Positions 8,999 to 55,684 of a stretch of 64,000 nucleotides of DNA are shown in pieces (position 1 is the first letter of the stretch; each line of letters starts with the position of its first letter). Made by a program: the position numbers and the translations under genes. This DNA comes from Gemmatimonadota bacterium (GTDB lineage Bacteria > JBHIER01 > G020348925): contig CP070758.1 of the NCBI GenBank assembly GCA_020348925.1, forward strand, positions 2,557,688 to 2,621,687. Reading direction: 5' to 3'. The notes below the pieces were generated by a model that was not told the origin of the DNA, did no database searches, and saw nothing but the letters and a program-made list of their open reading frames with translations.

Positions 8999-9214
8999 GA
9001 GCACATCTGGAGACTCTGTGAAATGTATACGTTACCTGCGATGAAAGGCGGTCATGGTGGAAAAGACAGTGATGGTAAAAATGGTGACGGTATCCTTATT
9101 GCGTGTGGGATAATGAGGATCGTCTGACTCTGTTCATTCCCAAATGATAGTTATTACAAGAGAATTTCTGAATGAAAATACGTTTTCGTGAAATTGGAGA
9201 GAAAGGAGATTCAC

Positions 9215-22904: not shown

Positions 22905-23818
22905 ATGATGAAGTGTTTTCATCTTCTTCTCACTCTGGTACTTCTTTCTTGCCTTGTCGTTGCCGTCGAAGCATCGCCACAGGAAGCACACCCCTATCTC
23001 ATCAAAATATCCCGGGCTGATTCGAACGTCGTTACGGTTCTTCAAGAACGAAATATTCCTGTCTATTTGAAATTGAAGAAATGGTACTTCGCAGGAGCAC
23101 ATGCACCCGATTTCATTTATCTCAGGGAGAAGGGAATAGAGTATGATGTGATTGATGAGGAGGCGTGGTCGAAACCGTACTATTTAATAACCAGACCTCG
23201 GAGAGGGGAGCTCGGTGTTATTCCCGAGGTCGGCAGAATTCTTTTTCAGGAGGATAAGGAGGCGATTCTCAAAAAAGGTAGCAATCAATTTCTCGAACTG
23301 GTCAGTGCCGGGTATACATTGACGCGGCTTTTTCAGAGATCGCACCCAATCTTGGAAAGGAAACACAGTACATTACCTTCAATTGTCTGGGAAGCCGGGT
23401 CAGACGACGTAATCGAGACTATCGTCAATAATGTTTCCGAGGACAGTCTTCGATCATATGTTCAGCGTTTGCAGGATTTTCAGACCCGGTATTTCGAAAC
23501 AGATTCGATCAAGGCATGTGCTCGCTGGTTCCGAAACACCCTTCTCGATTTCGGATACACCGATGTTGTCTTCGATACGTTAACCAATCAGCCACTTGAT
23601 CATGCAATCTGGAACGTAATCGCCACCAAGCCCGGTTTTTTCTATCCTGACAGTATCGTCATAATAGGTGGCCACTTTGATTCCATCGTTCGTGATGGGA
23701 CGAATCCGTATGTCTGGGCGCCCGGGGCAGGCGATAACGCCTCCGGGACGCGGTGGTGACGGTCAATATCGTCTGGGGTATGCATGAGCCTGATGAGGGG
23801 GAAACGACACGGGCTGAT
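22905..23818 (+). pseudogene. M28 peptidase paralog with a ~2-kb internal deletion, fused out of frame to a dockerin remnant
   Basis: SD AGGAGG and ATG at 22905; reads to GAGDNASG, then stops at 23759. DNA from ~23747 encodes DAVVTVNIVWGMHEPDEGETTRAD, which is mid-dockerin in the paralogs. Confidence 0.88.
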
Positions 23819-26944: not shown

Positions 26945-27090
26945 GAATTAATATTTTATGAGCTTAGTGTATTTACAGTGTAAGTCATACTATATGAAAT
27001 GTATTGACGAGTGAAGAGCATTTCTTGGATAAAAGGTACCTGAGAGAATGTTCATGAGTTGAGCATTTTAAATTGCTGAGGGAGGTGACC

Positions 27091-30337: not shown

Positions 30338-30426
30338 GGTATTCCAAAGGGCGTCATTGTATCAAACCATTGTGCAGCATTGCTCTTTGGTCCGAACTTC
30401 GAATCTCTTGGAAAGGAGATGAGGTG

Positions 30427-33593: not shown

Positions 33594-33680
33594 TTGACAT
33601 CCAAGGAGGCGCGCTATAATTTTAGTGCGCCATGAAGGGAGAGGCGATCCTGGGAGTATACAATCCCCTACTTTACTCCC
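33594..33680 (+). promoter_or_regulatory. Promoter TTGACA-N17-TAATTT plus conserved two-hairpin 5' leader (copy B)
   Basis: TTGACA at 33594, TAATTT at 33617, GCGCC..GGGAGAGGCG, GGGAGTA..TACTCCC. Confidence 0.7.
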
Positions 33681-33772
33681 CTGTATTTAAAGGACTTCGC
33701 TGTTTTATTCCAGAGACGAAAGCGTTGTTCTTTCAATCATATTTCTCATTTTTCACGAAAGGAGAGGACGTG

Positions 33773-39875: not shown

Positions 39876-39927
39876 CCCTGCGGCATCCGCAGGGAAAACG
39901 AGACAGCACCTCTGTCCGTGCTGTCTC
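39876..39927. other. Two adjacent perfect hairpins in the intergenic spacer
   Basis: CCCTGCGG-cat-CCGCAGGG and GAGACAGCAC-N8-GTGCTGTCTC; no + strand U-tract. Confidence 0.6.
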
Positions 39928-39950
39928 ACTCTTTGAAAGAGAGGATACCG

Positions 39951-42899
39951 ATGAAAACAAAAGCGTTCAGAGCGGGAATATGCCTTCTTTTGACCGTCAT
40001 GCTGTTCTGCTCTGACAGGCCGTGCTGCGCCAAGACCGAAGATCTCCTGATGATCTCGTTGTCGGCCCTCACAAGAGAGCAGATACAGTTCGTAGAAGGG
40101 GAGTGCGTGTCCTACGGTCATATAGACGATCAGACCATTGTGGCCCTGACGAAGGAAGAGGAATTGGCCGCGTATCAGAACGAGGGTCTGGCCTATGAGA
40201 TCCTGGGTGATTTCGCCGACGGCAGTCGGTTCTTTCTTGTCTCGTTTGTGTCTTTCGAGCAACGTGACAAGCTTGATGAAATAGGGCAGGTCGTGTTCAT
40301 CCAGGGGGATCGAGCGCTCTTGCGTGTGGAAGCCCATTGGGATCGCACACTGCCCAAATATGGAATCGAATTGGTCAAAGCGTTTTTTGTCCCGAAGCAG
40401 GCTGTTCATCAAAAGCGGTTGCCTGTGAGCCGTTCTCCCCTCCTCAGTGACATCGTTCACGAGGTGTCGCCTGTGAGAATTTATAATTTCATACTCGATC
40501 TACAAAACTTCCAAACGCGGTTTGCCTACGCTGAGGAGTGCAGTTTGGCGGCGAACTACCTTATCGAACAATTCGAGAGCTGGGGCCTTGAGGTGACGGA
40601 ACACTGGTTTTTCAATTCCGCTTGGATCAGTTATCAGGATCCCCAGCGGAACATCATCGCCACACTCCCTGGGACAACGTACCCGGATGAGATTGTCGCC
40701 ATATGCGCTCACTACGATTCCTATTCGGAGGAGGATCCGTGGAATTACGCTCCGGGGGCCGATGATAATGCCAGCGGTACGGCGGCCGTGCTTGAGACCG
40801 CGAGGATTTTGAGTCAATATGGTTCGGAACGGACCTTACAGTTTATTTGCTTTGGTGGCGAAGAGCAGTGGATGATAGGCTCATACGCGTACGTCGAGGA
40901 GCGAAGGGCTGCCGGAGACAATTTTGTGGCTGTCATCAACAATGATATGATCGCATATACCGGTGAGGGGAAATTCGAGGACATCGAGGTGGACTGCATA
41001 CCGGAGACCGAGTGGATGGCCGATGATGTTATGGCCCTGGCGTCGGATTTTGTGACGTACCCTATGACGAAGAACGTCGACTGGGGAAATGTCTCCGACC
41101 ACACACCTTTTTGGGAAAACGGGTATCCTGCTATCGAGCTGGCGGAGGATGAGGCCAATGAGGTCTGGGGCGGGACAAGTCCGTACTACCATACACCCGG
41201 AGATGTTATCGAGACATTGAATTTTGAATTTGCCACACAGATTGTGAAGATGAATGCTGCGGCCCTGGCTTCGTGGGCAGATGTGAGTGTGACCGGATCT
41301 GCTGTAGCCTGTGGGGAACATATGATAGATGATGACGATCTCGGTGAGAGTCAGGGAAACGGGAATGGATACGTAGATCCCGGAGAGACGATTGAACTTG
41401 TAGTCTTCCTGAATAATATAGGTGTTAGTAATGTTTCAGGAGTGAGTGGTACGCTACAGACTGACGATGAGTACGTCACTCTCATCAGAAGTACAGTTGC
41501 ATTCGGCGACATAGGTGCCGGCGGCTCAATCCCGGGACAGGATCCCTTCACCTTCACCGTCTCACAGAATTGCCCCAATGGTCACCAGATACTCTTTTCA
41601 CTCACTATTGAGGATGATCAGGCGAGAGTGTGGGAGGGCGGGCTCGTCGTGGAAGTCCTTCAACCGATATTCGTGTTCCACTCTCATTCCTTTGAGGAGG
41701 TTGGAGGAAATGGAGACAGCGTCCTCGATCCCGGTGAGACAGCAAACCTCTACGTTTTTTTGGAAAACATCGGTTTCCGGGGTGCTTCGGGAATCACGGC
41801 TCATCTCGAAACGGATGATCCTGACGTATCGATTGCCGACGGAGAAGCTGTTTTCCCTGATATTGCGGTCGGTGAGCATTCCGGGAACACGGCCGCTCCA
41901 TTCACGTTCTCGGTGCAGGAAACAGCGTCCCTCCATACGATTCTCTTCACCGTGCATGTCTCTGAAGGGATGGGCTGTTCCCACGCTGATGTGACCGTTC
42001 GGTTGCTTATTGGACAAGGGACTGTCCTCCTCATACCGGACGACGGCGGGATCGGGAACGAAAATTACTACATTGACGCATTCCGATATTTGGGCGTTCC
42101 ATATGAGATTGGCGACGTTCAGGGCGTGCCCAAACCTGTTTCCGATGGGCTTCTCGATTATTCGGAGGTCATATGGTTCACAGGGGCGGGAGAGAGGAAC
42201 ACACTGATGCCGGAGGATCAGAGCAGCCTGGAGAGTTTTCTCAATGAGGGTGGGAAACTGCTTTTATCCGGGAGCATGATCGGTTACGATGTGGGCAACA
42301 CTTCTTTTTACAGAAGCTATTTACATGGGCACTATGTTTCCTTTATGACGATGCTCCACCATCTCAATGGGGCTCCGTCGAACCCGGTGGTCGGTGAGAT
42401 GGATATAGCACTTTCATCAACTGGGAATAACGCTCAGTCGTTTGCTGGGGAGATCGATGCGATCCCCCCGGCCGTATCAATCTTTGAATATGATCGTGCC
42501 ACGGAAGAGGGGTCGGGTGTTATCAGATCGAGCGGGAGCGGTGCACTCGCTGTGGAAACGTCGGTCTACAAGGTGGCCTATTTCTCATTCGGTATCGAGG
42601 GTATCGAACCTGTGGAGGATCGTGCCCAGGTCTTGGCGGATGTCCTGCTCTGGTTCAAGGCACCTGGAATTGACAAGGGTGATGTGGACGGAAATGGGAC
42701 CATCGATATTATTGATGCTGTTGTAGGGGTGAATATTGTTATCGGTCTTCATCAGCCGAGTGAGGAAGAGATCGCCCGGGCCGACATGAATTATGACGGG
42801 GAAGTCAATATTGTTGATGTGGTTAAAATCGTGAATGCTGTCCTGGGGAGTAGTGGCAAGGCGATGGGTGTCCGCGTTACGAAGAATGAGATTCGATAG
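39951..42899 (+). CDS. Secreted M28 peptidase-dockerin (copy 8; subfamily B)
   Basis: CAHYDS, GADDNASG, GGEEQW, NNDMI, SDH; catalytic region close to 23999-26944; dockerin. Confidence 0.92.
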   Translation: MKTKAFRAGICLLLTVMLFCSDRPCCAKTEDLLMISLSALTREQIQFVEGECVSYGHIDDQTIVALTKEEELAAYQNEGLAYEILGDFADGSRFFLVSFVSFEQRDKLDEIGQVVFIQGDRALLRVEAHWDRTLPKYGIELVKAFFVPKQAVHQKRLPVSRSPLLSDIVHEVSPVRIYNFILDLQNFQTRFAYAEECSLAANYLIEQFESWGLEVTEHWFFNSAWISYQDPQRNIIATLPGTTYPDEIVAICAHYDSYSEEDPWNYAPGADDNASGTAAVLETARILSQYGSERTLQFICFGGEEQWMIGSYAYVEERRAAGDNFVAVINNDMIAYTGEGKFEDIEVDCIPETEWMADDVMALASDFVTYPMTKNVDWGNVSDHTPFWENGYPAIELAEDEANEVWGGTSPYYHTPGDVIETLNFEFATQIVKMNAAALASWADVSVTGSAVACGEHMIDDDDLGESQGNGNGYVDPGETIELVVFLNNIGVSNVSGVSGTLQTDDEYVTLIRSTVAFGDIGAGGSIPGQDPFTFTVSQNCPNGHQILFSLTIEDDQARVWEGGLVVEVLQPIFVFHSHSFEEVGGNGDSVLDPGETANLYVFLENIGFRGASGITAHLETDDPDVSIADGEAVFPDIAVGEHSGNTAAPFTFSVQETASLHTILFTVHVSEGMGCSHADVTVRLLIGQGTVLLIPDDGGIGNENYYIDAFRYLGVPYEIGDVQGVPKPVSDGLLDYSEVIWFTGAGERNTLMPEDQSSLESFLNEGGKLLLSGSMIGYDVGNTSFYRSYLHGHYVSFMTMLHHLNGAPSNPVVGEMDIALSSTGNNAQSFAGEIDAIPPAVSIFEYDRATEEGSGVIRSSGSGALAVETSVYKVAYFSFGIEGIEPVEDRAQVLADVLLWFKAPGIDKGDVDGNGTIDIIDAVVGVNIVIGLHQPSEEEIARADMNYDGEVNIVDVVKIVNAVLGSSGKAMGVRVTKNEIR

Positions 42900-43061
42900 A
42901 GTGGTATCGCACTGAGAATGTGTTTAAAGTGAAAATATTGAATTCCGAATGAATCATGTGAGCGGCGACCCCTGACGTGCATTGTTTCGCCATTCTTTTG
43001 TTACATAATGAGATACCGTCATCGAAGAGATTGCGTCGGACGGCTTGAAAGGAGAAAACCC

Positions 43062-46013
43062 ATGAGCCGGAAAAATTTTTTTCTCGCGTTGATCGTTCTT
43101 TCTGCGATCTGTCTTGGGTCAGGCTTCCTGTGGGCTTGGGACGATTCGAAGGATGTGCCTCTTACCGAACGATCCAGGGAAGAGCTATCCCGGTATTTTC
43201 ACGAATACCGTGATGATTTTCACGCAATGAAGACTGAGGAATTGAGCCGGAAGTATTATGAGGCATATAAAACCTTCGCCGATTCAGCCCATGCCTACGA
43301 TGTGCTTCACTATGAGCTCGATATTGTCTTTGACATCCCTGACCCTTCTCTCTCAGGTGTCGTCATTGTACGGTGTCGAAGTAATGAATCCGGTCTTTCA
43401 AATATCAGTCTGCACTTCGTTGCTCTCACTGTGGATGGAGTCCGGAGAGATGGAATGTCAGTGGGGTACGACCATGTGAATGGGGAACTCTATATCGATT
43501 TGAACGGAACCTTTGATGCCGGCGAGGAATTTGAAGTTGCAGTGACCTATCTCGGGACGCCGGCGGCCGGGTACTGGCACGGGAATGATTTTTTCTTCAC
43601 GTCTGTGGAACCGAGCCTGTCCAGGTATTGGTGGCCGTGTTTTGACGAGCCCTGGGATAAGGCCACCGCCGATATCTCTGCGACTGTGCCGGCCGGATAT
43701 ATCGTCGCGTCCAACGGTGTGTTAATCGAGACAATCGAAAATACCGTTGACAATACCATCACCTACTCATGGTCTGAATCCTATCCCATCGCGACCTATC
43801 TCGTCTCCGTAGCTATTGCACGGTATGTGACCTTCAGCGACACCTACTATCCTGTGACCGGCGGCGATCCCATGGAGGTTATTTTCTATACGCCTTCATA
43901 TCTGTTCAGTGCCTCCCAATACGATTTTGGTCGAACGGTGGAGATGATTGAGTGCTTTGTGCCCTTGTTCGGTGAGTACCCTTTCTTGGATGAGAAGTAC
44001 GGCACGGCTGTGGCCCCTATGAGTGGGGCTATGGAACACCAGACCTGTACGACATGGATGAACGGCTGGGTGACCGGAGATAGGGAGCGTGAGTGGACTG
44101 TCGCCCACGAGCTGGCCCATCAATGGTGGGGGGATATGGTGACCCTGTTGGATTGGCGCCACATGTGGCTTAACGAAGGCTTTGCTGTCTATTCGGAAGC
44201 CCTGTGGGCGGAATATCTATATGGGGAAGAGGGTCTTCGGATATATACCGAGCTGGCGATTCAAGAGTACTTTCAAAACTGGGAGGACAGTTCCCCTGCC
44301 AACCGACATCCCATTTATGATCCTCCTCCGGGAGCGCTCTTTTCTCCGGCCCAGTATGAAAAGGGCGGAAGCGTTCTTCACATGCTCAGGTTTGTGGTGG
44401 GCACCGATCTCTTTTTTGAGAGTATCCGGACATACGGCCAGCGCTATATGTACGGCAACGCCACGACGGATGATCTGAAGGCGGTGTTCGAAGAGGTGAC
44501 TGGAGAAGAACTCGATTGGTTCTTTGAGCAGTGGATTTACTCGCCGGGCTATCCCGAATATCAGTTTATGTGGGAAACGGAGGATATTGGCGGCGGAATG
44601 CATGAGGTGACAGTTCACGTGAACCAGATTCAGACGAACGCCCCCGTCTTCACCATGCCGGTGGAGTTCAATGTCTTCACGAGGAACGGCGAGGTGATCG
44701 ACACGGTCGTCATCGATCAGGCTTTTCAATCGTTCCAGATCACAGTAGACGCCGCACCGGATAGCGTCTTTCTCGATCGGTTCGGCTGGATATTAAAAGA
44801 CGTCACAACCATCACATCACCACTCCTTTCCTATACCGAGTATTCCGTAGATGATGAGGCCGGCAACAGTGATGGTCGTCCGGACCCGGGAGAGACCGTT
44901 CATCTTACGGTCAGTCTGCGCAACACCGGTGTCGATGCCACAGGTGTGGTGGTTACCCTGGTGACTCAGGATCCCGATATTATGATCACGGACAATGTCT
45001 CTGAGTACGGAAGTATAGCATACGGGGAGATTGGTACGAATGCGGACGACCCTTTCGTTTTCCAGGTTGAGAGCGAATGCTTGAGCAAAATGGCCCTTTT
45101 TATCGTGACCGTCAGCAGTGATAACGGATACACAGCTTCGGATTCAATCTATCTCTCCGTTGGACCCGCCACTATTCTTATTGTTGATGATGATTTCGGG
45201 GAGATGTATGAAGAGTACTATACGAAAGGATTTGCCACCATTTATCCAATTGATGTGTGGGATGTGGCCCTTGAGGGCGTGCCTGTAAATACCCTTCCTG
45301 ATTATGAAGCCGTCGTCTGGTTTACCGGTGATGATCGAACATCGACGCTCACGTCCGAGGAACAGGCCGTTCTCAAGGAGTATCTTGATGGCGGCGGCAA
45401 CCTGCTGGTAACCGGGCAGAACATCGGATACGATCTCGTAGGAGAAGGATCGATCGAGGACGCTGTGTTTTATCACGACTACCTCCACGCCGAGTATGTG
45501 AGTGATACTGCACCCGGAGATATTGTGACCGGGGTGGACGGGGATCCGATCTCCGGGGACATCGTCTTTTTGAGCTTGGGCGCTGGAGGTGCAGGCAACC
45601 AGAATTCACCCAGCGTCATCGAGCCGTTTCCTGGGGCAACACCTGTTTTTACGTATCAGGGTTATGGCGAGGCAGCGGCTGTCCGATACAGCGGTGAGCA
45701 TAAGGTCGTATACTTTGCCTTTGGCTACGAGGGCGTTGGTGCTTTCGGTGCCGATCACGCCAAAGTGCGGACTTCTCTTATGGATCATGTCGTCCGGTGG
45801 TTTCGGCACGAACCACAGAAGGGGGATGTCAATGAGGATGGTACCGTCAATATCCTCGATGTGGTCGTTGCTGTCAACATTATCCTGGGATTGGTGGAAC
45901 CGACCGAGGGACAATATTGGGCGGCGGATTATACCGAAAACGGTGAGGTTGATATTCTGGATGTCGTGAATATTGTGAACGCAATTCTCGGATCACCGAC
46001 ATCTGTGAAATGA
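43062..46013 (+). CDS. Secreted M1 family aminopeptidase + chassis + dockerin
   Basis: WWPCFDEP.DKAT, GAMEHQ, HELAHQWWGD...WLNEGFA.Y, YEKG..VLHMLR; dockerin GDVNEDGTVNILDVV. Confidence 0.93.
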   Translation: MSRKNFFLALIVLSAICLGSGFLWAWDDSKDVPLTERSREELSRYFHEYRDDFHAMKTEELSRKYYEAYKTFADSAHAYDVLHYELDIVFDIPDPSLSGVVIVRCRSNESGLSNISLHFVALTVDGVRRDGMSVGYDHVNGELYIDLNGTFDAGEEFEVAVTYLGTPAAGYWHGNDFFFTSVEPSLSRYWWPCFDEPWDKATADISATVPAGYIVASNGVLIETIENTVDNTITYSWSESYPIATYLVSVAIARYVTFSDTYYPVTGGDPMEVIFYTPSYLFSASQYDFGRTVEMIECFVPLFGEYPFLDEKYGTAVAPMSGAMEHQTCTTWMNGWVTGDREREWTVAHELAHQWWGDMVTLLDWRHMWLNEGFAVYSEALWAEYLYGEEGLRIYTELAIQEYFQNWEDSSPANRHPIYDPPPGALFSPAQYEKGGSVLHMLRFVVGTDLFFESIRTYGQRYMYGNATTDDLKAVFEEVTGEELDWFFEQWIYSPGYPEYQFMWETEDIGGGMHEVTVHVNQIQTNAPVFTMPVEFNVFTRNGEVIDTVVIDQAFQSFQITVDAAPDSVFLDRFGWILKDVTTITSPLLSYTEYSVDDEAGNSDGRPDPGETVHLTVSLRNTGVDATGVVVTLVTQDPDIMITDNVSEYGSIAYGEIGTNADDPFVFQVESECLSKMALFIVTVSSDNGYTASDSIYLSVGPATILIVDDDFGEMYEEYYTKGFATIYPIDVWDVALEGVPVNTLPDYEAVVWFTGDDRTSTLTSEEQAVLKEYLDGGGNLLVTGQNIGYDLVGEGSIEDAVFYHDYLHAEYVSDTAPGDIVTGVDGDPISGDIVFLSLGAGGAGNQNSPSVIEPFPGATPVFTYQGYGEAAAVRYSGEHKVVYFAFGYEGVGAFGADHAKVRTSLMDHVVRWFRHEPQKGDVNEDGTVNILDVVVAVNIILGLVEPTEGQYWAADYTENGEVDILDVVNIVNAILGSPTSVK

Positions 46014-46043
46014 AATTGACACTCTTTGAAAAGGGGGGACGTT

Positions 46044-48464
46044 GTGCACCGTGTTATTACTGTTCTTGTACTTATGCTTTTTGCAACCGCTACTCTCACC
46101 CATTCGGAGGTTAAGAAACTTGTACGGGTTGACTTGAGCAATCAATCGGAAGCAAAAATCCTCGATTTCATGCGTCTTCATCCTGATGTAACCTTCTACG
46201 GACGGGAGGGACGACTGGTGGACGTGGTGGCACCGCTTTCCCACCTTGAAGCGTATCGCAACCTTGGATTTCCCATTGAAGTTCAGATTGAGGATGTCGA
46301 TGAATATACGCAGGCATTGAAGCAACAGGGATACTTCGATCATTTTCACGATTACGATAGGGCCTTGGCTGAAATGCAGGCTGTTGAAGCCGCCCATCCT
46401 GAGATTGCACAACTCTATGATATTGGGGATGGCTGGGAGAAAACCCAGGGTCTGGCCGATCGGGACATCTGGGCGATCAAGATTTCCGATAATGTAACCA
46501 CGGAGGAAGCTGATGAGCCGGAGGTGCTGTATATGGCCTGTCACCATGCCCGGGAGATCATTACCCCGGAAATTGTCCTCTATTTTATGAACTACCTCGT
46601 GGATAACTACGGCAGTGATCCTGAGGTGACGGATATTGTGAACAATCGTCAACTCTGGCTCATACCCCTCGTAAACCCTGACGGTCATGCGGTCGTGTTT
46701 ACGGGGACTGACTGGCGCAAGAATAAGCGGGATAATAATGGAAACGGCCAATTCGATCTCAGCACCGATGGTGTTGATCTCAACAGGAATTACGGCTTCG
46801 CTTGGGGGTATGATAATATCGGCTCCAGTCCTGATCCTGCGAACTGGTTGTATCGAGGTCCATCACCCTTTTCAGAGCCGGAGACACAGGTCATTCGGGA
46901 TTTTGTCGAAGCCCACAGCTTTGTTATTTCACTTTCCTATCATTCGTACAGCAACTTGTGGCTGTACCCGTGGGCGTATCGGGCTCAAAACACGCCGGAT
47001 CATGAGATATTCGTCGAGATAGCAGATAGTTGTGTCGCTTACAACGGATATGAACCGGGGAACACCTTATCGGGTACGATTTACGTCGTTAATGGTGAAA
47101 CTGATGATTGGATGTACGGTGAGCAGACGACGAAATGCAAGACATACGCGTTCACTCCCGAGGTGGGTGGCCCTGCGGACGGTTTCTACCCGGACACATC
47201 GCGGAGAATACCCCTTATCCTCGAAAACCTGGGGCCGAATCTGTATGTGGCCCGGGCAGCCGAAAAATACACGCAACCGGCCATTTCCTATCTTGGTTTC
47301 AGCTTGGAGGAGGTCTCCGGTAACGGGGACGGTATCCTCGATCCTGGAGAGATGGTGAATCTCTTCATCCGAATCGAAAACAAGGGGTTGGGAGGTGTCT
47401 CGGAGATATCGGTTGTTCTTGAGACAGCCGATACTGATGTAACGATCAGCCACAGTGAAGTCACGTATCCAGGTATGGGGTGCAGTGCTCTCGCCGAAAA
47501 CTCGGAGGACCCCTTCACCATTTCGGTGAGCGATGAAGCACAGCCGCATGGTATCGTCTTCTCACTGCATCTCTCAGAGATTGAGGGAACGTATCAGGAG
47601 GATGTGACGTTTCAGTTGCTCATCGGCCAGGGAACGGTATTACTGGTTGCTGACGATGGTGGGCTTGATAACGAAAATTACTACATTGATGCTTTTCAAC
47701 ACCTGGGGATTCCCTACGAGATCCTGGACGTTCATGGAATGAGCAAGCCTCCCTCCAACGTTTTATTCGACTACTCAGAGGTGATCTGGTTCACAGGATC
47801 TTCGGAGCAGAACACGCTGACGCCGGAGGATCAGAGTGATCTTGCGGCGTATCTCAATAATGGCGGACGGTTGCTTCTGTCCGGAAGTATGATCGGTTAT
47901 GAGATCGGAACCACACCTTTTTACAGGAATTACCTCCACGCCAGGTTTGTTTCCTTTTTGACACTGCTTCATCATCTCAACGGAACGCCAACGAATCCCA
48001 TCGGCGGTGGGATGAATATTGCATTGGCTTCAGGTGGAAGCAATGGACAGGGATTTGCCGGAGAGACCGATCCCATCAGCCCGGCTGTTTCCGTATTCAA
48101 TTATGACCGGAGCACCGAGGAGGGACCTGGAATCGTCTCTTCAAGTGGCAGCGGGGTCTTGGCTGTTGAAACGGCAGAGTACAAGGTGGTGTACGCGTCC
48201 TTCGGTTTGGAGGGGATCGAGCCTTTGGAGGACCGAGTGCAGGTGTTGGCGGATGTGTTAGCGTGGTTCAAGAAACCCGGCGTGGATAAGGGTGATGTGG
48301 ACGGCAACGGCACGACGGACATCATCGACGCTGTGATGGCGGTCAATATTGTGTTGGGATTGCATCAGCCGGAAGAGGATGAGATTGCCCGGGCGGACAT
48401 GAACTACGACGGAGCGATTGACATCATCGATGTGGTCAATGTCGTCAACGCTGTTCTTGGATGA
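46044..48464 (+). CDS. Secreted M14 zinc carboxypeptidase (carboxypeptidase T-like) + chassis + dockerin
   Basis: HHARE, NPDG, WRKN, GVDLNRNY, FSEPET, YHSY, FTPEVG; dockerin nearly identical to those of the M28 copies. GTG start inferred. Confidence 0.92.
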   Translation: MHRVITVLVLMLFATATLTHSEVKKLVRVDLSNQSEAKILDFMRLHPDVTFYGREGRLVDVVAPLSHLEAYRNLGFPIEVQIEDVDEYTQALKQQGYFDHFHDYDRALAEMQAVEAAHPEIAQLYDIGDGWEKTQGLADRDIWAIKISDNVTTEEADEPEVLYMACHHAREIITPEIVLYFMNYLVDNYGSDPEVTDIVNNRQLWLIPLVNPDGHAVVFTGTDWRKNKRDNNGNGQFDLSTDGVDLNRNYGFAWGYDNIGSSPDPANWLYRGPSPFSEPETQVIRDFVEAHSFVISLSYHSYSNLWLYPWAYRAQNTPDHEIFVEIADSCVAYNGYEPGNTLSGTIYVVNGETDDWMYGEQTTKCKTYAFTPEVGGPADGFYPDTSRRIPLILENLGPNLYVARAAEKYTQPAISYLGFSLEEVSGNGDGILDPGEMVNLFIRIENKGLGGVSEISVVLETADTDVTISHSEVTYPGMGCSALAENSEDPFTISVSDEAQPHGIVFSLHLSEIEGTYQEDVTFQLLIGQGTVLLVADDGGLDNENYYIDAFQHLGIPYEILDVHGMSKPPSNVLFDYSEVIWFTGSSEQNTLTPEDQSDLAAYLNNGGRLLLSGSMIGYEIGTTPFYRNYLHARFVSFLTLLHHLNGTPTNPIGGGMNIALASGGSNGQGFAGETDPISPAVSVFNYDRSTEEGPGIVSSSGSGVLAVETAEYKVVYASFGLEGIEPLEDRVQVLADVLAWFKKPGVDKGDVDGNGTTDIIDAVMAVNIVLGLHQPEEDEIARADMNYDGAIDIIDVVNVVNAVLG

Positions 48465-48882
48465 CGTGCCCAGCTCAAGAAAGAAATCTTGCGTTCGGTA
48501 GATTCGAAATTCACAACAAGATTGAAATATCCTGAATGGAGAATTAAGCCGATAGCGTTCAGACATTCTCATGGGAGATGGGATGTTGGATGTGGGGATT
48601 CCGTTTCTAGCTCTACCGCTCAAAGTCTATAGAGTTGTATTCAGGCAGACGTGGATTCTGTTCAACGGTTGATCATGAGATGCTGGAAGAGTAACATTTC
48701 GATGGTCATACTCTGCATGGAGCTTTTACATATTGAAACTTCTGATGCACAAGTGTGACTAATGAGGCAGTTACTCTGCAATGGAGGCAGAACGGATCCG
48801 CAAAGATACTGTTGTGATCCAGCCGGAGTATGTTCTGATCCTCATTCTCGGATTTAAATCCCATTCACGCAGGAGGTGACCT

Positions 48883-51800
48883 ATGGTGCACCGTTATTAC
48901 GGAAGAACCTTCGTTCTTTCGGTTCTTGTTGTGTGTCTGCTCTTGGCGCATGGCAGGAGCATCTCGGGGGAGATAACGACCTCGATCTCTTTTTCACCGT
49001 CGGATCTCTCAGTGACTGAGAATGGTGAGTACGATGTGCTCTCTATGACCGATTGTGATATTTCGAGGGAGGTGGGGGAACCGCAGATCCCGGTAACACT
49101 CCTTCACGTAGTCTTGCCTGCGGGGGCAGACGTTAACCGCGTCGAGGTGCTCTCAACGCAAAGTGAGGCGCTTGAAGGGATCTTTCGCCTGTACCCTGTT
49201 CAGCCGCCTCAGCCGTACGGTGCGCCCGGGAAACCGACGATCGAAATCGAGTTTTTCCGGCCCAAAGCAGATGTCTATGGATCCACCGAATTGTATCCAA
49301 CGGAGATTGTGGAGGCGGGGAAAGCCGGCTCCAGGGCCGGTTATCGATTGGCCGGGCTGCTCGTCTATCCGATTCAGTACATTCCGGCCGAGGGAAAGCT
49401 TCTCTTTCACAGGCGCATCGACGTCCGGATTCATTATTCCTCGAATCAGGTTGAACGGAGATCCTTCAAGAAACCTGCGGCTCGATCCCATGCTGTTCTG
49501 CGGCGGTCCGTCGAACGGGCCGTGCTCAACCCTGAGGATGTGTCTGATCGCTCCGGTTTGAGGGGTGATGTTTTTTCCGCCGTTCCACCCGGTTCTTACG
49601 AATATGTGATCGTTACTGATGAGGACTACGCCGCAGATTTTCAACCGTTGGCCGATTGGAAGACGAAGAAAGGGGTACCGGCGAATACTGTGACGACAGA
49701 CTGGATCTACGCAACCTACCCGGGTGTTGATCATCAGGAACAGATTCGCAATTTCATTCGCGATGCCTATGAGAATTGGGGCACACTCTGGGTTCTCTTA
49801 GGGGGTGACTGCAGTGACTTGACTTATGGCCCGAGCCCGCCGCAGGCGCACGTGGTTCCGGCGAGAATAGTCTGGGCCATGGATTGCGAATTTGACCCCG
49901 AGAATCATCCCGATGAGAACGACATCCGGGCGGACTTGTATTACTCGGATCTTGACGGGACGTGGGACGATAACGGCAACGGCATCTATGGTGAAGTGGC
50001 GGACAACGTCGATCTCTACCCAGACGTTTATGTCGGCCGTGCTTCGGTCAATACGACGGAAGAAGTGAACACCTTTGTGAACAAAATTCTGACCTACGAG
50101 AAACCCACAGTCACGGACCGGTTCAAGAAGCTCCTTTTCCTGGGAGAGATCATGTGGACCGATCCCTACACCGATGGCGGTGAGGGGAAGAATATGATCG
50201 ACGACGAGTGCATTCCGCCCAGATTCGATCCCATCACGAAACTCTACCAGTCGGAGGGGAACGAAAATACCGAGTCCGTCATGGCCGCTGTGAATGAGGG
50301 GCATCACTTCATCAATCACGACGGCCATTGTATGTGGTATATTATGGGTATGGGCAACGGATCCTTTTATGCTCAGCATATGGATGCCTTAACGAACGAC
50401 CCGGCATACTCCATCATTTACTCCATCGGGTGCTGGCCGGCGGCCTTCGACTACGACTGCGTGGCCGAGCACTTTATCACCAATCCTCACGGTGGTGGTG
50501 TGGCCTTTGTCGGGAACTCTCGGTATGGTTGGGGATCGCCCGGCAATCCCGGTTACGGCTATTCGGATCGGATCGATCACCGGTTCCTCTATAACATCTA
50601 CATGGACGATATCTACCATATTGGCGAGGCCATCGATCTGGCCAAGGCGTATTATGTTCCCTACTCTCAAATGGCCAACGTCTACCGCATTCATCAGTAT
50701 CAGGTCAATCTTCTGGGAGATCCGGAGATGCCCATCTGGACCGATGATCCCGCGGAGTTGACAGTCATCCATCCGTCCAGTGTCGTCGTCGGGTCGAACC
50801 GGGTTATCGTGACCGTCACCGACGGGACCGAGCCTGTCGGTGATGCCCTGGTATGCCTGCACAAAGGAAGCGATGTCTATACGTTTGGAAGAACCGATGC
50901 TCAGGGACAGGTTTCCCTCGATATCACGCCTTCTTCAAACGGAACAATGGATATCACCGTCACCGGACACAATGTGCTGCCGTTTGAGGGAACGATCACC
51001 GTCACTGGTTCCGGTGCCCAATTGAGCCATGTCGGTTGCGATCTTTCCGATGACGGTGGAAACGGCGACGGCCTCATGAATCCGGGCGAGACCGTCTCCC
51101 TCGGTGTAGCTTTCGCAAATCAAGGAAATGAAACAGCCTATGGCGTCACTGTGACAATGTCTTCGGATGACGATCTCGTCACCGTTCTTGATGGGGATAA
51201 AACATGCGGTGATGTGGCATCTGGAGAGGAGATTCCTGCACACCTTGACGATTTTTCATTCATGATTTCGTCCGAGGCGACCAACGGTCATGTCCTGTAT
51301 GTGACCTTTACCCTAACCGATCAATCGAGCAACGTCTGGACGAGTACCCTGGGTCTGCCGGTCTGTACGCCGGTGCTCAGCTATGTTGCCCATGAGATTG
51401 ACGACGCCGGGGGAAACGGGAACGGCTTCGCCGAGCCGGGGGAGACGGTTGATATGGTGGTCACTTTTTCCAACACGGGTTTGGGCAACGCCGTGGGTGT
51501 CACGGCAACCATTGCGACCAGCACTCCGCACGTCACTATTGCTGGAAATCCGCTCAATGTGGGGAACATTGGGCCTGACGAAGAAAATCAAGGGACCTTC
51601 TCCGTCACCATTGATCACAGCTGTCCGGCCATATATTTCCCGATCCTGACCTTTACACTGTCGACACAGGATGGCTATACTTTTGAAAGCGGTTGCCTCG
51701 TGTCCATCGGGCCCATGGGGTTCGGCGACAACATGGAGAGTGGCCAGGGCGAGTGGACTAACGAGGGAGAAGGGAATATGTGGCATCTCAGTGATTATCG

Positions 51801-53445
51801 GTCCCACTCAGGGAACTGGAGCTGGTACTGCGGCGATGAACAGACCCACCAGTACGACTTTGGTTGGGACTGCCCTCTGGTGACGCCCGCTTTTGGTTTG
51901 AGCCCCCATTCCACCCTCTCCTTCTGGGTTTGGTTTGAAGTTGCCACCTACGGTGTGTTCGGCATCACCGTCGAGGTCAAATCGGGTTTGGGCTGGAAGA
52001 AGATCGATTTTATCGGCAGTGGTGGAGCCCTGGGGCCCAGTGGCGAGACGGAAGTGAGATGCGATTGGATGAAATACGAGTACGACCTCTCCTCGATTCC
52101 CGTCGGGGAGGCTCAGCTGCGGTTTCGATTTTTCAGTATACCCGACTCCTACTGGGACGGTGAGTACATCTGGGAGGGGGTTTATCTTGATGACGTCACA
52201 ATTACCCCGTCGGGACAGGCGGATCTTGAATCGATGCAGCCTGATATCCGGTATGCCTCTTTTTCGATCGAGGACAGTGAAGGAAATGGTGACGGGCTCG
52301 TCGATCCTGGCGAGCAGTGTCAGCTGTTGGTCACCCTTCACAACCAAGGATTACGAGACGCCTCCAACGTCGTTCTTTATCTGAGCACGGACGATCCGGA
52401 TGCGAACATTACGGATGGTGAAGCCTTCATCGAAAACATCTATATCGGCGATACAATTGAGAATGTGGCCAATCCGTTCAGTCTCCAGACAGGGCCAGAG
52501 GTGTCGCTTCATGTTATTCCCTTCACGCTGAGCATATTTGAGGGTGACGCCTATTACTCGACGGTGGTACAGTTTCATGTGCGCATGGGTCAGGGGAAGG
52601 TGCTCATTGTGGAGGATGACAACGGTTCAGCGTTATCATCCTACTATGAGGATGCACTCCAGGCTGTTTTTGTGCAGTATGACATGTGGGACACGGAAGA
52701 GGATGATCTCATTCCCACCCATGTTCTCGAAGAATACGATGATGTGCTCTGGGTAACCGGTCCAACCCAGGAGACGCTGAGTGAGGACGAACAGCAGAAT
52801 CTCCGGACTTTTCTGGACAATGGTGGGAACCTGCTTCTGTCCGGAAACATGATTGGGTATGCGCTGCGCAATACCCCGTTTTTTTCGAATTACTTGCATG
52901 CCGATTACGTGAACTTTATGACCAGGCTTCATCACCTCAATGCGGTTCCTGGGAATCCGATTCTTCAGGATATGGACATCACAATAGCCGCATCCGGGCA
53001 GACTGGACAAGGATTTACCGGGGAGATCGATCCACTTCCGCCTGCGTTCTCATTCTATACTTACGACCGGACCACAGAGGAGGGACTGGGTGATATTCGT
53101 TCCTCGGGCAGTGGTGCCGTCGCCTTCGGAAACGGGACGTACAAAGTTGTCTATTTCAGCTTCGGCATCGAGGGCATTGAGCCGCCCGAAACGAGAACGG
53201 CCGTGCTGGATGCCATACTGAACTGGTTCCGGACGACCATTGAGGTTGGGAATGGAGATGTGAACCTCGACGGAAACGTTAACATCATCGATGTCGTCTG
53301 GGCGGTAAACATCGTTCTGGGAACGCACCAGCCGACCGAGCAGGAAAGAAAGAACGCCGACTTGAACGGTGACGGGCAGGTGAACGTCATCGACGTTATC
53401 GGAATCGTCAATCTTATTCTGCACGGAGGAGCTGCCGCGAAATAA
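48883..53445 (+). CDS. Secreted C25 (gingipain-like) cysteine peptidase with propeptide, Ig-like repeats, MAM/immune-inhibitor-like jelly-roll, chassis and dockerin
   Basis: GEPQIP propeptide; YVIVT, WKTKKG, VLLGGD, DLYYSDLDG, VYVGR, NHDGH (His), SIGC (Cys), GGGVAFVGNSRYGW, NLLGDPEMPIWT; dockerin GDVNLDGNVNIIDVV. Confidence 0.9.
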   Translation: MVHRYYGRTFVLSVLVVCLLLAHGRSISGEITTSISFSPSDLSVTENGEYDVLSMTDCDISREVGEPQIPVTLLHVVLPAGADVNRVEVLSTQSEALEGIFRLYPVQPPQPYGAPGKPTIEIEFFRPKADVYGSTELYPTEIVEAGKAGSRAGYRLAGLLVYPIQYIPAEGKLLFHRRIDVRIHYSSNQVERRSFKKPAARSHAVLRRSVERAVLNPEDVSDRSGLRGDVFSAVPPGSYEYVIVTDEDYAADFQPLADWKTKKGVPANTVTTDWIYATYPGVDHQEQIRNFIRDAYENWGTLWVLLGGDCSDLTYGPSPPQAHVVPARIVWAMDCEFDPENHPDENDIRADLYYSDLDGTWDDNGNGIYGEVADNVDLYPDVYVGRASVNTTEEVNTFVNKILTYEKPTVTDRFKKLLFLGEIMWTDPYTDGGEGKNMIDDECIPPRFDPITKLYQSEGNENTESVMAAVNEGHHFINHDGHCMWYIMGMGNGSFYAQHMDALTNDPAYSIIYSIGCWPAAFDYDCVAEHFITNPHGGGVAFVGNSRYGWGSPGNPGYGYSDRIDHRFLYNIYMDDIYHIGEAIDLAKAYYVPYSQMANVYRIHQYQVNLLGDPEMPIWTDDPAELTVIHPSSVVVGSNRVIVTVTDGTEPVGDALVCLHKGSDVYTFGRTDAQGQVSLDITPSSNGTMDITVTGHNVLPFEGTITVTGSGAQLSHVGCDLSDDGGNGDGLMNPGETVSLGVAFANQGNETAYGVTVTMSSDDDLVTVLDGDKTCGDVASGEEIPAHLDDFSFMISSEATNGHVLYVTFTLTDQSSNVWTSTLGLPVCTPVLSYVAHEIDDAGGNGNGFAEPGETVDMVVTFSNTGLGNAVGVTATIATSTPHVTIAGNPLNVGNIGPDEENQGTFSVTIDHSCPAIYFPILTFTLSTQDGYTFESGCLVSIGPMGFGDNMESGQGEWTNEGEGNMWHLSDYRSHSGNWSWYCGDEQTHQYDFGWDCPLVTPAFGLSPHSTLSFWVWFEVATYGVFGITVEVKSGLGWKKIDFIGSGGALGPSGETEVRCDWMKYEYDLSSIPVGEAQLRFRFFSIPDSYWDGEYIWEGVYLDDVTITPSGQADLESMQPDIRYASFSIEDSEGNGDGLVDPGEQCQLLVTLHNQGLRDASNVVLYLSTDDPDANITDGEAFIENIYIGDTIENVANPFSLQTGPEVSLHVIPFTLSIFEGDAYYSTVVQFHVRMGQGKVLIVEDDNGSALSSYYEDALQAVFVQYDMWDTEEDDLIPTHVLEEYDDVLWVTGPTQETLSEDEQQNLRTFLDNGGNLLLSGNMIGYALRNTPFFSNYLHADYVNFMTRLHHLNAVPGNPILQDMDITIAASGQTGQGFTGEIDPLPPAFSFYTYDRTTEEGLGDIRSSGSGAVAFGNGTYKVVYFSFGIEGIEPPETRTAVLDAILNWFRTTIEVGNGDVNLDGNVNIIDVVWAVNIVLGTHQPTEQERKNADLNGDGQVNVIDVIGIVNLILHGGAAAK

Positions 53446-53627: not shown

Positions 53628-55364
53628 TTAGGGACAGTCATCCAGTCCCAGAATGAGGTTCACGATTTTCACGGCATCCAGGATATTGACAACACCGTCG
53701 CCGTCACAATTGCCCGAGGGTCCGTTACAATCGATTCTCAGGGATTGATCCGGTTCAGGTTCGTGTAATTCGAGAATCGTGTTTATGACGAAGAGGGCGT
53801 CCATGATGTCGACGACGCAATCGTGATTCGCATCGCCTTTTATGTTTTCACAGACGGTGATCGTCAGGGCGTCAGTATCTTTTGCCAGAGGGTCGGATTG
53901 AGCGGTGGCCGTGAGCGTGACCGTGTTCACCATTCCCTCCGTGGCAGTTGTAGGAATAAGACACATGATCTCAAGGGTGGTATCCGTGCATGCCTGAAGA
54001 GAGAGCGCAAATGAGTCGGGATTCAAAGTCCAACCTCGAGTATCTGTCGCTGTCACCTCGTATGTGAATGTCCGGGCCTCGGGATTCGTAATGGCGAAGG
54101 AAGGGAAGAGAGTATCTCCGATTGATCCCCCTAAAGTGGAAACAGCCAGGACTGAGACTTCGGGAGGGTGGATGGATTCGGGAATTTCCCGGGTGATACA
54201 ATGGATGGCGCCGCCGAAGCGTGGGGCGAAGTGGAGACAGCTGATGGGAATAATCTCATAATCCGGTAGAGCCGTTTGATACGTCGCAAGTGCTTCTGAG
54301 TCGGTGGGACTGTCGTACACCGGCACAAAGACCTGCTTGTCGAGGATGAGTGAATTCACATATGTGCAATAACTTGAAACCGAATTCACTTTGTACATGG
54401 GAACGCGAAGGACGTCAAATGTGCTTCCAGTGTAAGTCTTCAGCGTGCTGAAAATAGTGGCAGCATTTTCCAGGAGAGCGTACTCCACAGCCTCGGTATC
54501 CATAAATTTTGCCACTAAAACTGTGTTGGCATTTAAAAATTTGGCCCACATGTCAATATGGGCAAGATTTGCGCATTCCTCAAACACCTGAAAAACGAGG
54601 AACCGGTCACAACCGAAGTACGTTGCCATCAAAGAATCTGCCTGTTCAGAGGTTAACTCTGGATTTTTGTTGTGAAAGTAGTCTGTGGAAACAAGTAATC
54701 CCTTGCCGTCCGTCATAAAATTTCCCCCGTCGTATTTAAAATCGAAATCGTAGCAATCGAAGCAGTAGTGTTGGCAAAAAAAGGGAGGAAGACCGTCAGA
54801 TGCAGTTAATCTTTCGATATATTTTGTATCAATTCCCACCAAACGGTCGTCTGAATCATAGACGAAAAAGGGTCCGCAGTCCCGCATCCAGAATAGATTA
54901 CTTGAATACGTGAAAAATGAGATATTATCCAAAGCGCAATGCTCATTGATAAGCAGACTCTCGACGGTATTGAAATTCTGTTCATTGCGCACACCAATGA
55001 ATATCGTGTTTTCAGGATCGATGTGTTGGACCATCGATAATAGAATTCTGTCCAATACTCCAGCAAATTCATGATCCCAGTAAATGAGGACGCCCTGGCA
55101 GGGCTCGAACTCGGCCGGAGTTCGGACGGGTGAAGAAGGTGGCTGTTGAATGCCCTCGAATTCAACCGTCATCGGGGTAATAGGAAATTCTCTGTTCAAA
55201 AATTCTTTCAACCAGGGCAGAGCTTCGAGTTCGATGTGTTTGTAGCCTGTTGTTTCTGTTGCAGTTGAGGATACCGTGGTGCTTACAAGCGGGTCGGGAG
55301 AAACGTATACTGAGCTGAGTATGATCAAACACACCACGGTATTTCGAGCGGATCTGGGAATCAT
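53628..55364 (-). CDS. Secreted agmatine/peptidyl-arginine deiminase (PPAD-like) + Ig-like domain + dockerin
   Basis: Start inferred at ATG 55364 after GGAGG/AAGGA. PAEFEP, WMRDCGP, DGGNF.TDG.G, HIDMW.KF, YVN.LI, GGAIHCIT (catalytic Cys); dockerin GDANHDCVVDIMDA...DGDGVVNILDAV. Confidence 0.88.
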   Translation of the reverse strand: MIPRSARNTVVCLIILSSVYVSPDPLVSTTVSSTATETTGYKHIELEALPWLKEFLNREFPITPMTVEFEGIQQPPSSPVRTPAEFEPCQGVLIYWDHEFAGVLDRILLSMVQHIDPENTIFIGVRNEQNFNTVESLLINEHCALDNISFFTYSSNLFWMRDCGPFFVYDSDDRLVGIDTKYIERLTASDGLPPFFCQHYCFDCYDFDFKYDGGNFMTDGKGLLVSTDYFHNKNPELTSEQADSLMATYFGCDRFLVFQVFEECANLAHIDMWAKFLNANTVLVAKFMDTEAVEYALLENAATIFSTLKTYTGSTFDVLRVPMYKVNSVSSYCTYVNSLILDKQVFVPVYDSPTDSEALATYQTALPDYEIIPISCLHFAPRFGGAIHCITREIPESIHPPEVSVLAVSTLGGSIGDTLFPSFAITNPEARTFTYEVTATDTRGWTLNPDSFALSLQACTDTTLEIMCLIPTTATEGMVNTVTLTATAQSDPLAKDTDALTITVCENIKGDANHDCVVDIMDALFVINTILELHEPEPDQSLRIDCNGPSGNCDGDGVVNILDAVKIVNLILGLDDCP

Positions 55365-55684
55365 TTTTCCTTGTCCTCCTCGGTTCCCTATTGTGGACAT
55401 AATCCTGACTGCATGCGACCGTTCCCTATGATGAGATGGGATTTTTGTCTCAGACACAGGTCCTTTGGAAGCAGCCAACAGTTCTGATTGATATGAAACC
55501 TCATGGGTATATTTTTTAATGTCTCGAATAGGTTCGACACACTCCGTGGGATCATAGTTTCATTGGGCTCACAGACATGATTTTTTTCGAGCACTTTCTT
55601 TCATTTTATCTCAAAAAATTCGTGCCAAGTTTTCTTTTGAGTATTAAATTAGGTTCAATGATCCATTTATGAAAGGAGGAAAGA

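Follow-up and report, generated by a model that had tools for sequence, protein, structure and literature searches.

Detrital protein breakdown is driven by extracellular peptidases from uncultured microbes in sediments and soils, enzymes whose long C-terminal regions are mostly unannotated. The present analysis deals with a 64,000-nucleotide stretch of contig CP070758.1 from a Gemmatimonadota bacterium (hereafter, the window), in which secreted peptidases of four different families carry the same C-terminal tail, including an alpha/beta domain that belongs to a large unnamed family. Extracellular M28 and S8 peptidases have been reported for marine Gemmatimonadota (PMC11316326).

A row of secreted peptidase genes

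Eleven full-length genes encoding secreted peptidases follow one another on the + strand between positions 16535 and 53445, eight of family M28 being succeeded by one each of families M1, M14 and C25 (Table 1); endo-, amino- and carboxypeptidases are all represented among these four families. Catalytic heads were assigned by scanning with Pfam 21 of the 29 window open reading frames (ORFs) of at least 300 aa, from which antisense ORFs overlapping larger genes and one duplicate had been excluded. Peptidase_M28 was found in eight ORFs, and Peptidase_M1, Peptidase_M14 and Peptidase_C25 in the three ORFs downstream. Between head and dockerin nothing named was matched by Pfam in the 11 peptidases, except for weak CARDB and ABC_transp_aux matches in the C25 protein. 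Each M28 protein consists of a signal peptide, the M28 head, two immunoglobulin (Ig)-like repeats, the alpha/beta domain and the dockerin. The original prediction, made from the sequence, had placed the shared architecture at positions 43062-53445, a span that takes in the M1, M14 and C25 genes and leaves the eight M28 copies upstream of it.

Table 1. Coordinates of the peptidase genes, their modules and other features of the window.
Feature	Position	Strand	Basis
M28 tandem array, eight aminopeptidase genes	16535-42899	+	Pfam, Ig HMM, alpha/beta BLAST
M28a	16535-19513	+	
M28a alpha/beta domain	18644-19294	+	11-copy alignment
M28b	19552-22509	+	
M28b alpha/beta domain	21637-22290	+	11-copy alignment
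94-nt stretch in M28b dockerin, identical to M28c	22297-22390	+	Shared-stretch comparison
Truncated ninth M28 gene	22872-23759	+	Translation, 295 aa
M28c	23999-26944	+	
M28c alpha/beta domain	26072-26725	+	11-copy alignment
94-nt stretch in M28c dockerin, identical to M28b	26732-26825	+	Shared-stretch comparison
M28d	27073-30051	+	
M28d alpha/beta domain	29179-29832	+	11-copy alignment
M28e	30370-33393	+	
M28e alpha/beta domain	32521-33174	+	11-copy alignment
M28f	33632-36739	+	
M28f alpha/beta domain	35867-36520	+	11-copy alignment
M28g	36932-39874	+	
M28g alpha/beta domain	39038-39691	+	11-copy alignment
M28h	39918-42899	+	
M28h alpha/beta domain	42018-42671	+	11-copy alignment
M1 aminopeptidase	43008-46013	+	Pfam Peptidase_M1, M1_N, Dockerin_1
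M1 Ig-like repeat	44817-45167	+	
M1 alpha/beta domain	45168-45818	+	
M1 dockerin	~45819-45989	+	
M14 carboxypeptidase	46026-48464	+	Pfam; boundaries from BLAST, Ig HMM
M14 head	~46368-47216	+	
M14 Ig-like repeat	47274-47630	+	
M14 alpha/beta domain	47631-48284	+	
M14 dockerin	48288-48458	+	
C25 (gingipain-like) cysteine peptidase	48883-53445	+	Pfam, Ig HMM
C25 catalytic part	~49603-50733	+	
C25 Ig-like repeats	51016-51351, 51367-51711, 52237-52593	+	
C25 extra beta-rich insert, 175 aa (residues 944-1118)	51712-52236	+	
C25 alpha/beta domain	52594-53244	+	
C25 dockerin	~53254-53400	+	
Peptidyl-arginine deiminase protein	53628-55478	-	PAD_porph, E 9e-47
Leucine-rich repeat/thrombospondin type 3 repeat protein, open at 5' end	1-2781	+	
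Three ORFs upstream of the array	4603-6570, 9188-11125, 11928-16103	+	

A common tail behind four kinds of catalytic head

All 11 peptidases end in the same order of modules, namely one to three Ig-like repeats, an alpha/beta domain of 217-218 aa and a type I dockerin. When the 218-aa alpha/beta segment of the M14 protein was compared by BLASTP with 17 window proteins, the ten other peptidases were all matched, with identities of 56-73% to the eight M28 copies (E 3e-83 to 1e-110), 51% to C25 (E 4e-68) and 33% to M1 (E 3e-29). None of the six remaining proteins gave a match below E 5, including a leucine-rich repeat/thrombospondin type 3 repeat (LRR/TSP3) protein and a peptidyl-arginine deiminase (PAD) protein that also carry dockerins.

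A hidden Markov model (HMM) of the last Ig-like repeat (119 aa, before the alpha/beta domain) detected 21 repeats: two in each of the eight M28 proteins, one in M14, one in M1 and three in C25. These repeats open with the consensus DDxxGNGNGxxDPGET, and positions G16, G25, E26 and N36 are invariant. The AlphaFold2 (AF2) model of the repeat (pLDDT 94.2) is an all-beta, nine-strand beta-sandwich, for which Foldseek returned Ig-like and CARDB-type matches, among them CARDB 3idu with a query-normalised TM-score (TMq) of 0.60. In Pfam, CARDB exceeded its cut-off for the first C25 repeat only (30.7 bits vs 22.7), and the last repeat matched nothing better than E 0.14. Dockerin_1 was found above cut-off in 13 of the 21 scanned ORFs, i.e., the 11 peptidases, whose scores of 26.6-39.2 bits against a cut-off of 22.9 identify the dockerins as type I, together with the LRR/TSP3 and PAD proteins. 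Paired 64-nt dockerin segments at a spacing of 102 nt were detected in six of the 11 genes (M28a-d, M1 and M14), the other five showing one or no copy of this repeat family.

The significant alignment of these C-terminal regions by BLASTP, the Ig-like HMM and Dockerin_1 bears out the original prediction that M28, M1, M14 and C25 proteins share one C-terminal series, and the 21 repeats agree with the proposed one to three Ig-like units opening with an acidic loop. Likewise, the M14 tail proved to be as close to the M28 tails as these are to one another, both in the alpha/beta domain (56-73% vs 52-77% identity) and in the dockerin (37-86% vs 33-95%). Seven of the M28 proteins and the M14 protein share a tightly conserved tail type (59-77% identity in the alpha/beta domain, 69-95% in the dockerin), and the M1 alpha/beta domain is 32-38% identical to the other window copies.

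The alpha/beta domain: predicted fold and apparent loss of the catalytic signature

Alignment of the 11 alpha/beta copies yielded 35 invariant columns, and the motif string quoted earlier for the domain matches their consensus. The AF2 model of the M14 copy, obtained with a 33-row alignment, reached a pLDDT of 92.2 and a pTM of 0.91. A Foldseek search of the PDB with this model gave 207 matches at E <= 0.001; nearly all of the best 50 are glutamine amidotransferases (GATases) or GATase1-like domains, at identities of 9-15%. The matches listed include the GH42 middle domain 5xb7 (TMq 0.67), the IFT52 GIFT domain 5fms, the ThuA-like proteins 4e5v and 4jqs, the uncharacterised GATase1-like proteins 3rht and 2gk3 (TMq 0.63 for both 3rht and 4jqs), and the true GATases 2d7j, 2a9v, 1i1q_B and 1wl8 (E 1e-7 to 1e-6, TMq 0.55-0.62). 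By its predicted structure, the domain is of the class I GATase-like fold, in line with the class I GATase-like/ThuA assignment of the original prediction.

The positions corresponding to the nucleophile elbow and to the second catalytic motif, GxCxG and FHPE (or HPE) in GATases, were located by motif and by the predicted secondary structure of the model. The putative elbow reads G85-x-X87-x-G89, with X87 filled by M, L or N in every one of the 11 copies in place of the Asp that most relatives have there. Across 166 family domains this residue is D in 55%, N in 11%, F in 6% and L in 4%; neither Cys nor Ser is among these four commonest residues, and both stay under 5%. The FHPE position reads F191-G192-x-E194 (FGxE), in which Glu persists and His does not. 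By motif, the complete set of Cys nucleophile, His and Glu that marks a catalytic class I GATase was thus not found, consistent with the earlier remark that no catalytic triad is apparent in the sequence. The domain would be a pseudo-enzyme that has retained the GATase fold signature and lost the Cys nucleophile and the His, and a non-catalytic GATase1-like fold is, in our judgement, very likely.

A cryptic enzyme, in which a non-canonical set such as Asp87 at the elbow with His103 and Glu194 would provide the heads with a second activity, is very unlikely. The fold is that of a hydrolytic amidotransferase, and the residues of such a set are frequent in the family: D87 is present in 72% of both peptidase-linked and Omp28-linked copies, H103 in 86-100% and E194 in 91-100%. 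Nevertheless, position 87 is occupied by M, L or N throughout the window set of 11, which is still under strong purifying selection, Cys or Ser is not conserved at the elbow, and the nearest families by weak score (DUF4159, GIFT, ThuA-like) are non-catalytic or uncharacterised.

No Pfam model reached its gathering cut-off on the alpha/beta domain, the best score being 26.9 bits vs 34.7 (ABC_transp_aux, C25 copy, E 3.6e-6), and no NCBIfam model was matched at E <= 1. Sub-threshold Pfam matches (E <= 1) among 42 family members comprised DUF4159 in 19 (best E 0.0018), ABC_transp_aux in 10 (best E 3.6e-6), ThuA in 8 (best E 0.0019), DUF2194 in 7 and GLMA_2nd in 6. A sequence search of the PDB with two alpha/beta profiles gave E values of 0.1-0.3 only (a 7vkx-type glucosyltransferase, IFT52 and 4jqs), too weak when taken alone. 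The ESM Atlas feature search with the alpha/beta part returned unnamed clusters; a 'xanthan lyase fragment' and DUF4960, at 0.89-0.91, count as leads only. No description of the domain on peptidases was found in the literature searched.

Distribution of the alpha/beta family

A profile of the 11 copies matched 5661 representatives of 50% clusters at E <= 1e-3; of these, 3094 reached E <= 1e-10, and 540 reached E <= 1e-30. Among the 150 best proteins, 62 have two to six alpha/beta domains in tandem, and in 47 the last copy is followed by 61-130 residues. Pfam scanning of the 43 of these proteins with lengths of 600-1700 aa revealed a peptidase head in 30 (M28 in 10, C25 in 6, S8 in 4, C1 and C11 in 3 each, and M14, M1, M12B and M4 in one each), which was invariably N-terminal of the alpha/beta domain (30/30). 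The tails behind the domain in relatives are dockerins, type IX secretion system (T9SS) sorting domains or PGF-CTERM.

A genome scan located 73 loci in bacteria and archaea. Bacterial loci belong to unclassified metagenome-assembled genomes (MAGs), Chloroflexota, KSB1, Krumholzibacteriota, WOR-3, Cloacimonadota, Calditrichota, Ignavibacteria, Holophagae, Phycisphaerae and Desulfotomaculum-type Firmicutes, and archaeal loci to Methanophagales, Thermoplasmata, Archaeoglobales and Aenigmatarchaeota. The 61 of 79 domain-bearing ORFs that were scanned with Pfam carry a peptidase (18), Omp28 (23), GH18 (3) or no recognised head (13), plus one each with GHL10, Amidase_3, NosD/CARDB, and CARDB with PGF-CTERM. 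The ESM Atlas structure search added M6 and GH85 proteins (TM 0.85-0.89). Altogether, the heads in front of the domain comprise ten or more peptidase families as well as GH18, Omp28 and others. Only seven of the 73 loci contain two adjacent domain-bearing genes and none contains more, so that the run of 11 genes in the window is unusual, though the domain itself is not.

We conclude that the alpha/beta domain represents a new, very large and unnamed family of a known kind, that of non-catalytic GATase1-like accessory modules. The suggestion that the domain was undescribed stands as regards Pfam and NCBIfam models at cut-off; with 5661 cluster representatives, it is by no means specific to this locus. 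Its place between catalytic heads and surface anchors recurs in many bacterial and archaeal phyla, and it is clearly a candidate for description as a new family of Pfam or CBM-like type.

A second major context was found without an enzyme head, namely proteins of ~690 aa composed of Omp28, the alpha/beta domain and a T9SS tail, in Ignavibacteria, Calditrichota and others, sometimes as tandem pairs (loci L008, L022, L025, L026, L034, L039, L042-L045, L054-L059, L062, L066-L069 and L072). At another locus (L053, 7784-11797), Desulfofundulus thermosubterraneus DSM 16057 encodes an S8 peptidase with CarboxypepD_reg, the alpha/beta domain and a CE2_N-like segment; this cultured Firmicute is a possible experimental entry point.

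Exchange of modules between heads and tails

In the head tree, a deep split with 100/100 support separates the M28 heads {c,h} from {a,b,d,e,f,g}, identity across it being ~26%. Within the smaller group, c and h share 70% head identity; despite the ~26% identity of the heads, their alpha/beta domains are 59-77% identical to the other copies. M28g, whose head is 66-71% identical to those of e and f, has an outlying tail (52-56% identity in the alpha/beta domain and 33-40% in the dockerin). The same pattern was obtained with sliding windows: identity of the c-f pair rises from 5-44% over the head to 85-88% over the tail, and that of the g-f pair drops from 61-89% over the head to 36% over the dockerin. 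In these profiles, the first Ig-like repeat goes with the head and the switch point lies around the last one. The mobile unit is the alpha/beta domain plus the dockerin, perhaps with the last Ig-like repeat; it does not comprise the whole Ig-like series.

In the tree of alpha/beta domain plus dockerin, seven M28 proteins and M14 form a clade (98/99), with M28g, C25 and M1 outside. In the approximately unbiased (AU) test of this tail tree, a grouping of {a,b,d,e,f,g} was rejected at p = 0.0017, one of {e,f,g} at p = 0.002 and one of the eight M28 proteins as a whole at p = 0.005. No rejection was obtained for {c,h} as a clade (p = 0.48), so the discordance of c and h is one of depth and not of topology. 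In a tree of 39 alpha/beta proteins, head family changes 13 times, the minimum possible being 7; in 500 label shuffles the mean was 20 changes, never below 17. The alpha/beta domain and dockerin have been exchanged between heads several times.

Age of the exchanges

The proportion of synonymous differences (pS) was 0.6-0.9 in every module for nearly all pairs, i.e., saturated, with lower values only in the 59-codon dockerin (b-c 0.38, c-d 0.47). Nonsynonymous proportions (pN) were 0.14-0.33 in the alpha/beta domain and 0.02-0.14 in most dockerins. The head-tail combinations of the window also occur in other genomes, as in an M14 protein with dockerin (P0018; 56% identity in the head, 66% in the alpha/beta domain) and an M1 protein with dockerin (P0067; 65% and 61%). 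Both M28 head types are found elsewhere on near-identical tails (P0014 and P0015, with 31% identity between heads and 79% between alpha/beta domains), and one other MAG has counterparts of the type-I, g-type and M1-type tails. In a more densely sampled tree, the window M14 tail pairs with the M14 tail of another genome (100/97), and M28e with P0165 (100/99). Saturated synonymous sites together with the recurrence of the same combinations in other genomes indicate that the exchanges are old and that the combinations have been stably inherited. We regard the exchanges as ancient, the combinations having since been inherited vertically under strong purifying selection, and place high confidence in the architecture and evolutionary history as described here.

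The original prediction had proposed recent domain shuffling, in which four heads were placed onto a standard stalk within this genome. Shuffling itself is upheld by the incongruence of head and tail trees (AU p = 0.002-0.005); its recency is highly improbable. Favourable to it are the nesting of the M14 tail inside the M28 tail diversity, a tract of 94 identical nucleotides shared by the M28b and M28c dockerins, although these two proteins have 26% identity in their heads, and a sparsely sampled tree, which put the window M14 tail with the window M28 tails (96/89). Against these points stand the pS values, the pairing of M14 and M28e with foreign tails under denser sampling, the counterparts of the M1, g-type and type-I tails in one other MAG, and the AU test, by which M14 monophyly was not rejected (p = 0.155). 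Moreover, long near-identical DNA tracts between tails were looked for, and none was found beyond the 94-nt tract.

This tract, in surroundings of 60-75% identity, is the sole sign of recent exchange, the next-longest genuine stretch between any two of the 11 genes measuring 32 nt. Judging from the sequence, it looks like a short gene-conversion tract. The copies flank the truncated ninth M28 gene, whose ORF stops within the catalytic domain, lacks the tail cassette and is 44-50% identical to group-1 heads over residues ~7-293. Three further 'long matches' (at 46026, 19552 and 39918) were discarded as artefacts of the 100-nt flank entering the next gene. Within-genome concerted evolution was also considered, since the window M14 tail joined the window M28 tails in a 46-row tree of 50%-cluster representatives (96/89) and in a 28-row tree (95/93). 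An M14-M14 clade withstood the AU test (p = 0.40), and denser sampling paired M14 with M14; pervasive gene conversion was consequently dropped, the homogenisation signal being a sampling artefact.

Possible function of the alpha/beta domain

Eleven positions (W53, G85, Q86, D87, F97, Y98, Y101, H103, Y158, E194 and R202) show similar conservation whether the copies are linked to peptidases, Omp28 or GH18, and in the predicted model most of these head-independent positions lie at strand ends. Within a, b, d, e and f, the alpha/beta domain is at least as conserved as the heads (63-76% vs 45-70%). The explanation that we favour combines a display cassette, a pseudo-amidotransferase module for binding or adaptation and ancient exchange; as a whole, it is given a probability of roughly 0.5. 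Its functional component, a non-catalytic binding or adaptor module working with the dockerin, is more tentative and falls somewhat short of an even chance; it is proposed because of the analogy with CBM87 of Agd3 (see below). The ligand, a polymer or partner outside the cell that all heads would have in common, would be held where the active-site cleft formerly lay, by conserved residues along the sheet's C-terminal edge, and the dockerin would plug the enzyme into a cohesin partner.

The same conservation bears on two other roles, both of which we consider unlikely. One is oligomerisation or assembly, in which alpha/beta domains would pack together or with partners and enzymes with the same tail would co-assemble into mixed peptidase complexes. 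The independence of conservation from the head, the single tightly conserved tail type of seven M28 proteins and M14, and the presence of GH42 middle domains among the best fold matches are consistent with such a role; in GH42 trimers, the GATase1-like middle domain packs in this way. Two to six tandem copies in one polypeptide are, instead, typical of binding modules, and a homodimer prediction with two copies of the domain scored 0.00, which is no evidence either way. The other is an inert pedestal, i.e., a compact, protease-resistant spacer that lifts the head, or aids folding or secretion, without any ligand. Its position between Ig-like spacers and an anchoring tag, the 61-130 residues behind the last copy in 47 of the 150 relatives and its occurrence with any kind of head would suit a pedestal, but a domain at least as conserved as the heads while synonymous sites are saturated, with polar and aromatic positions conserved across bacteria and archaea, is under more constraint than a spacer needs.

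Several points weigh against the binding or adaptor module and the explanation built around it. The binding mechanism rests on analogy, and the cleft argument was built on predicted secondary structure and the GATase motifs GxCxG and FHPE. In the window type-I copies, W32 is replaced by an aliphatic residue and Q86-D87 by S, N or C followed by M or L, so that this argument transfers less simply to them; any ligand they bind may be a different one, or binding may have been lost. Conservation irrespective of the head is compatible with a structural or assembly role as well. Pfam detected no cohesin among the 21 window ORFs scanned. Gene3D and SUPERFAMILY labels for alpha/beta regions may already exist. 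As for the exchanges, some of the claims based on trees are weak: {c,h,P0014} was rejected no more than marginally (p = 0.028), and the AU test rejected neither {group 1 + P0015} (p = 0.10) nor, as stated above, M14 monophyly.

A broader proposal is more doubtful than either oligomerisation or a pedestal: the alpha/beta domain might be a universal adaptor of surface-displayed hydrolases in bacteria and archaea, a pseudo-amidotransferase that would recognise the same extracellular ligand or partner throughout. In this genome, the tail type (alpha/beta domain and dockerin) would serve as an address that assembles endo-, amino- and carboxypeptidases and PAD into a cellulosome-like, protein-degrading 'proteolysome'. 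A targeting or assembly role, if true, would explain how such organisms organise mixed peptidase sets on their surface, and would offer a handle for predicting which enzymes act together. The locus is, in addition, a clear case in nature of modules being exchanged and the resulting combinations then being stably inherited over a long time.

Neighbouring genes and other observations

The PAD gene, of the Porphyromonas type, and the gingipain-like C25 gene are placed tail to tail, and the PAD product has an Ig-like segment and a dockerin, without the alpha/beta domain. The two neighbours are reminiscent of gingipain and PPAD in Porphyromonas gingivalis. The C25 protein contains an extra insert between its second and third Ig-like repeats; its match to choice-of-anchor J is weak (E 0.074), and a relative (P0046) has an InhA-like MAM match at the equivalent position.

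At the opposite end of the window, the LRR/TSP3 protein, which combines leucine-rich repeats and a dockerin with three thrombospondin type 3 repeats, is devoid of the Ig/alpha-beta cassette, indicating that the dockerin is used more widely than the cassette in this genome. The three ORFs upstream of the array comprise two pyridoxal phosphate (PLP)-dependent decarboxylases, one of them tyrosine-decarboxylase-like, and a 1391-aa conserved hypothetical protein that matched no Pfam or NCBIfam family. The latter was considered as a possible scaffoldin, and set aside after an Atlas search gave unnamed clusters only.

Comparison with known systems

One of the closest known systems is the N-terminal domain of Agd3 from Aspergillus fumigatus, which founded CBM87. 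As described in PMC7229062, this domain has a GATase1/ThuA-like fold with 3RHT and 4JQS as nearest structures, lacks the triad, and has conserved aromatics at the sheet's C-terminal end, where a cleft binds polysaccharide. Like CBM87 as portrayed there, the window domain appears to be a non-catalytic GATase1/ThuA-like fold on a secreted hydrolase, without a Cys-His-Glu triad. The neighbours 3RHT and 4JQS are also among its listed Foldseek matches, a likeness by fold neighbourhood, and Agd3 itself was not among the best 50 of the 207 matches. The two differ in position, CBM87 being N-terminal, whereas the window domain is C-terminal and occurs mostly behind peptidases.

The same fold is shared with DUF4159, ABC_transp_aux/GIFT (GldG, IFT52, OST48), ThuA, DUF4350, GLMA_2nd and the GH42 middle domain. 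Weak sequence similarity to DUF4159, GIFT, ThuA, DUF4350 and GLMA_2nd is centred on a 'VIWxTG...L..YL..GG.L' core; however, no alpha/beta member reached their gathering scores. Furthermore, these families belong to periplasmic, cytoplasmic or eukaryotic components or to glycosidases, and are not tail modules of peptidases.

Cellulosomal enzymes, in which a catalytic module is followed by a CBM or Ig/X module and a type I dockerin, resemble the window proteins in being modular, with interchangeable heads, a C-terminal type I dockerin made of duplicated segments and many genes side by side. In contrast to them, the window heads are peptidases instead of carbohydrate-active enzymes, the Pfam scan of 21 window ORFs turned up neither cohesin nor scaffoldin, and the host is a Gemmatimonadota bacterium and not a cellulolytic clostridium. 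Dockerins outside cellulosomes are known in many lineages (PMC9012536). In one distant relative (P0066), a cohesin and a dockerin are both present, together with C11 and the alpha/beta domain.

Finally, a similarity was found to T9SS cargo of the Fibrobacteres-Chlorobi-Bacteroidetes (FCB) group, built of a head, an Ig-like domain and a C-terminal sorting domain, in which close relatives of the alpha/beta domain occur in M28, C25, S8, M1, M6, C1, GH18 and Omp28 proteins. These T9SS relatives end in FlgD_ig, Por_Secre_tail or CHU_C, whereas the window proteins end in dockerins.

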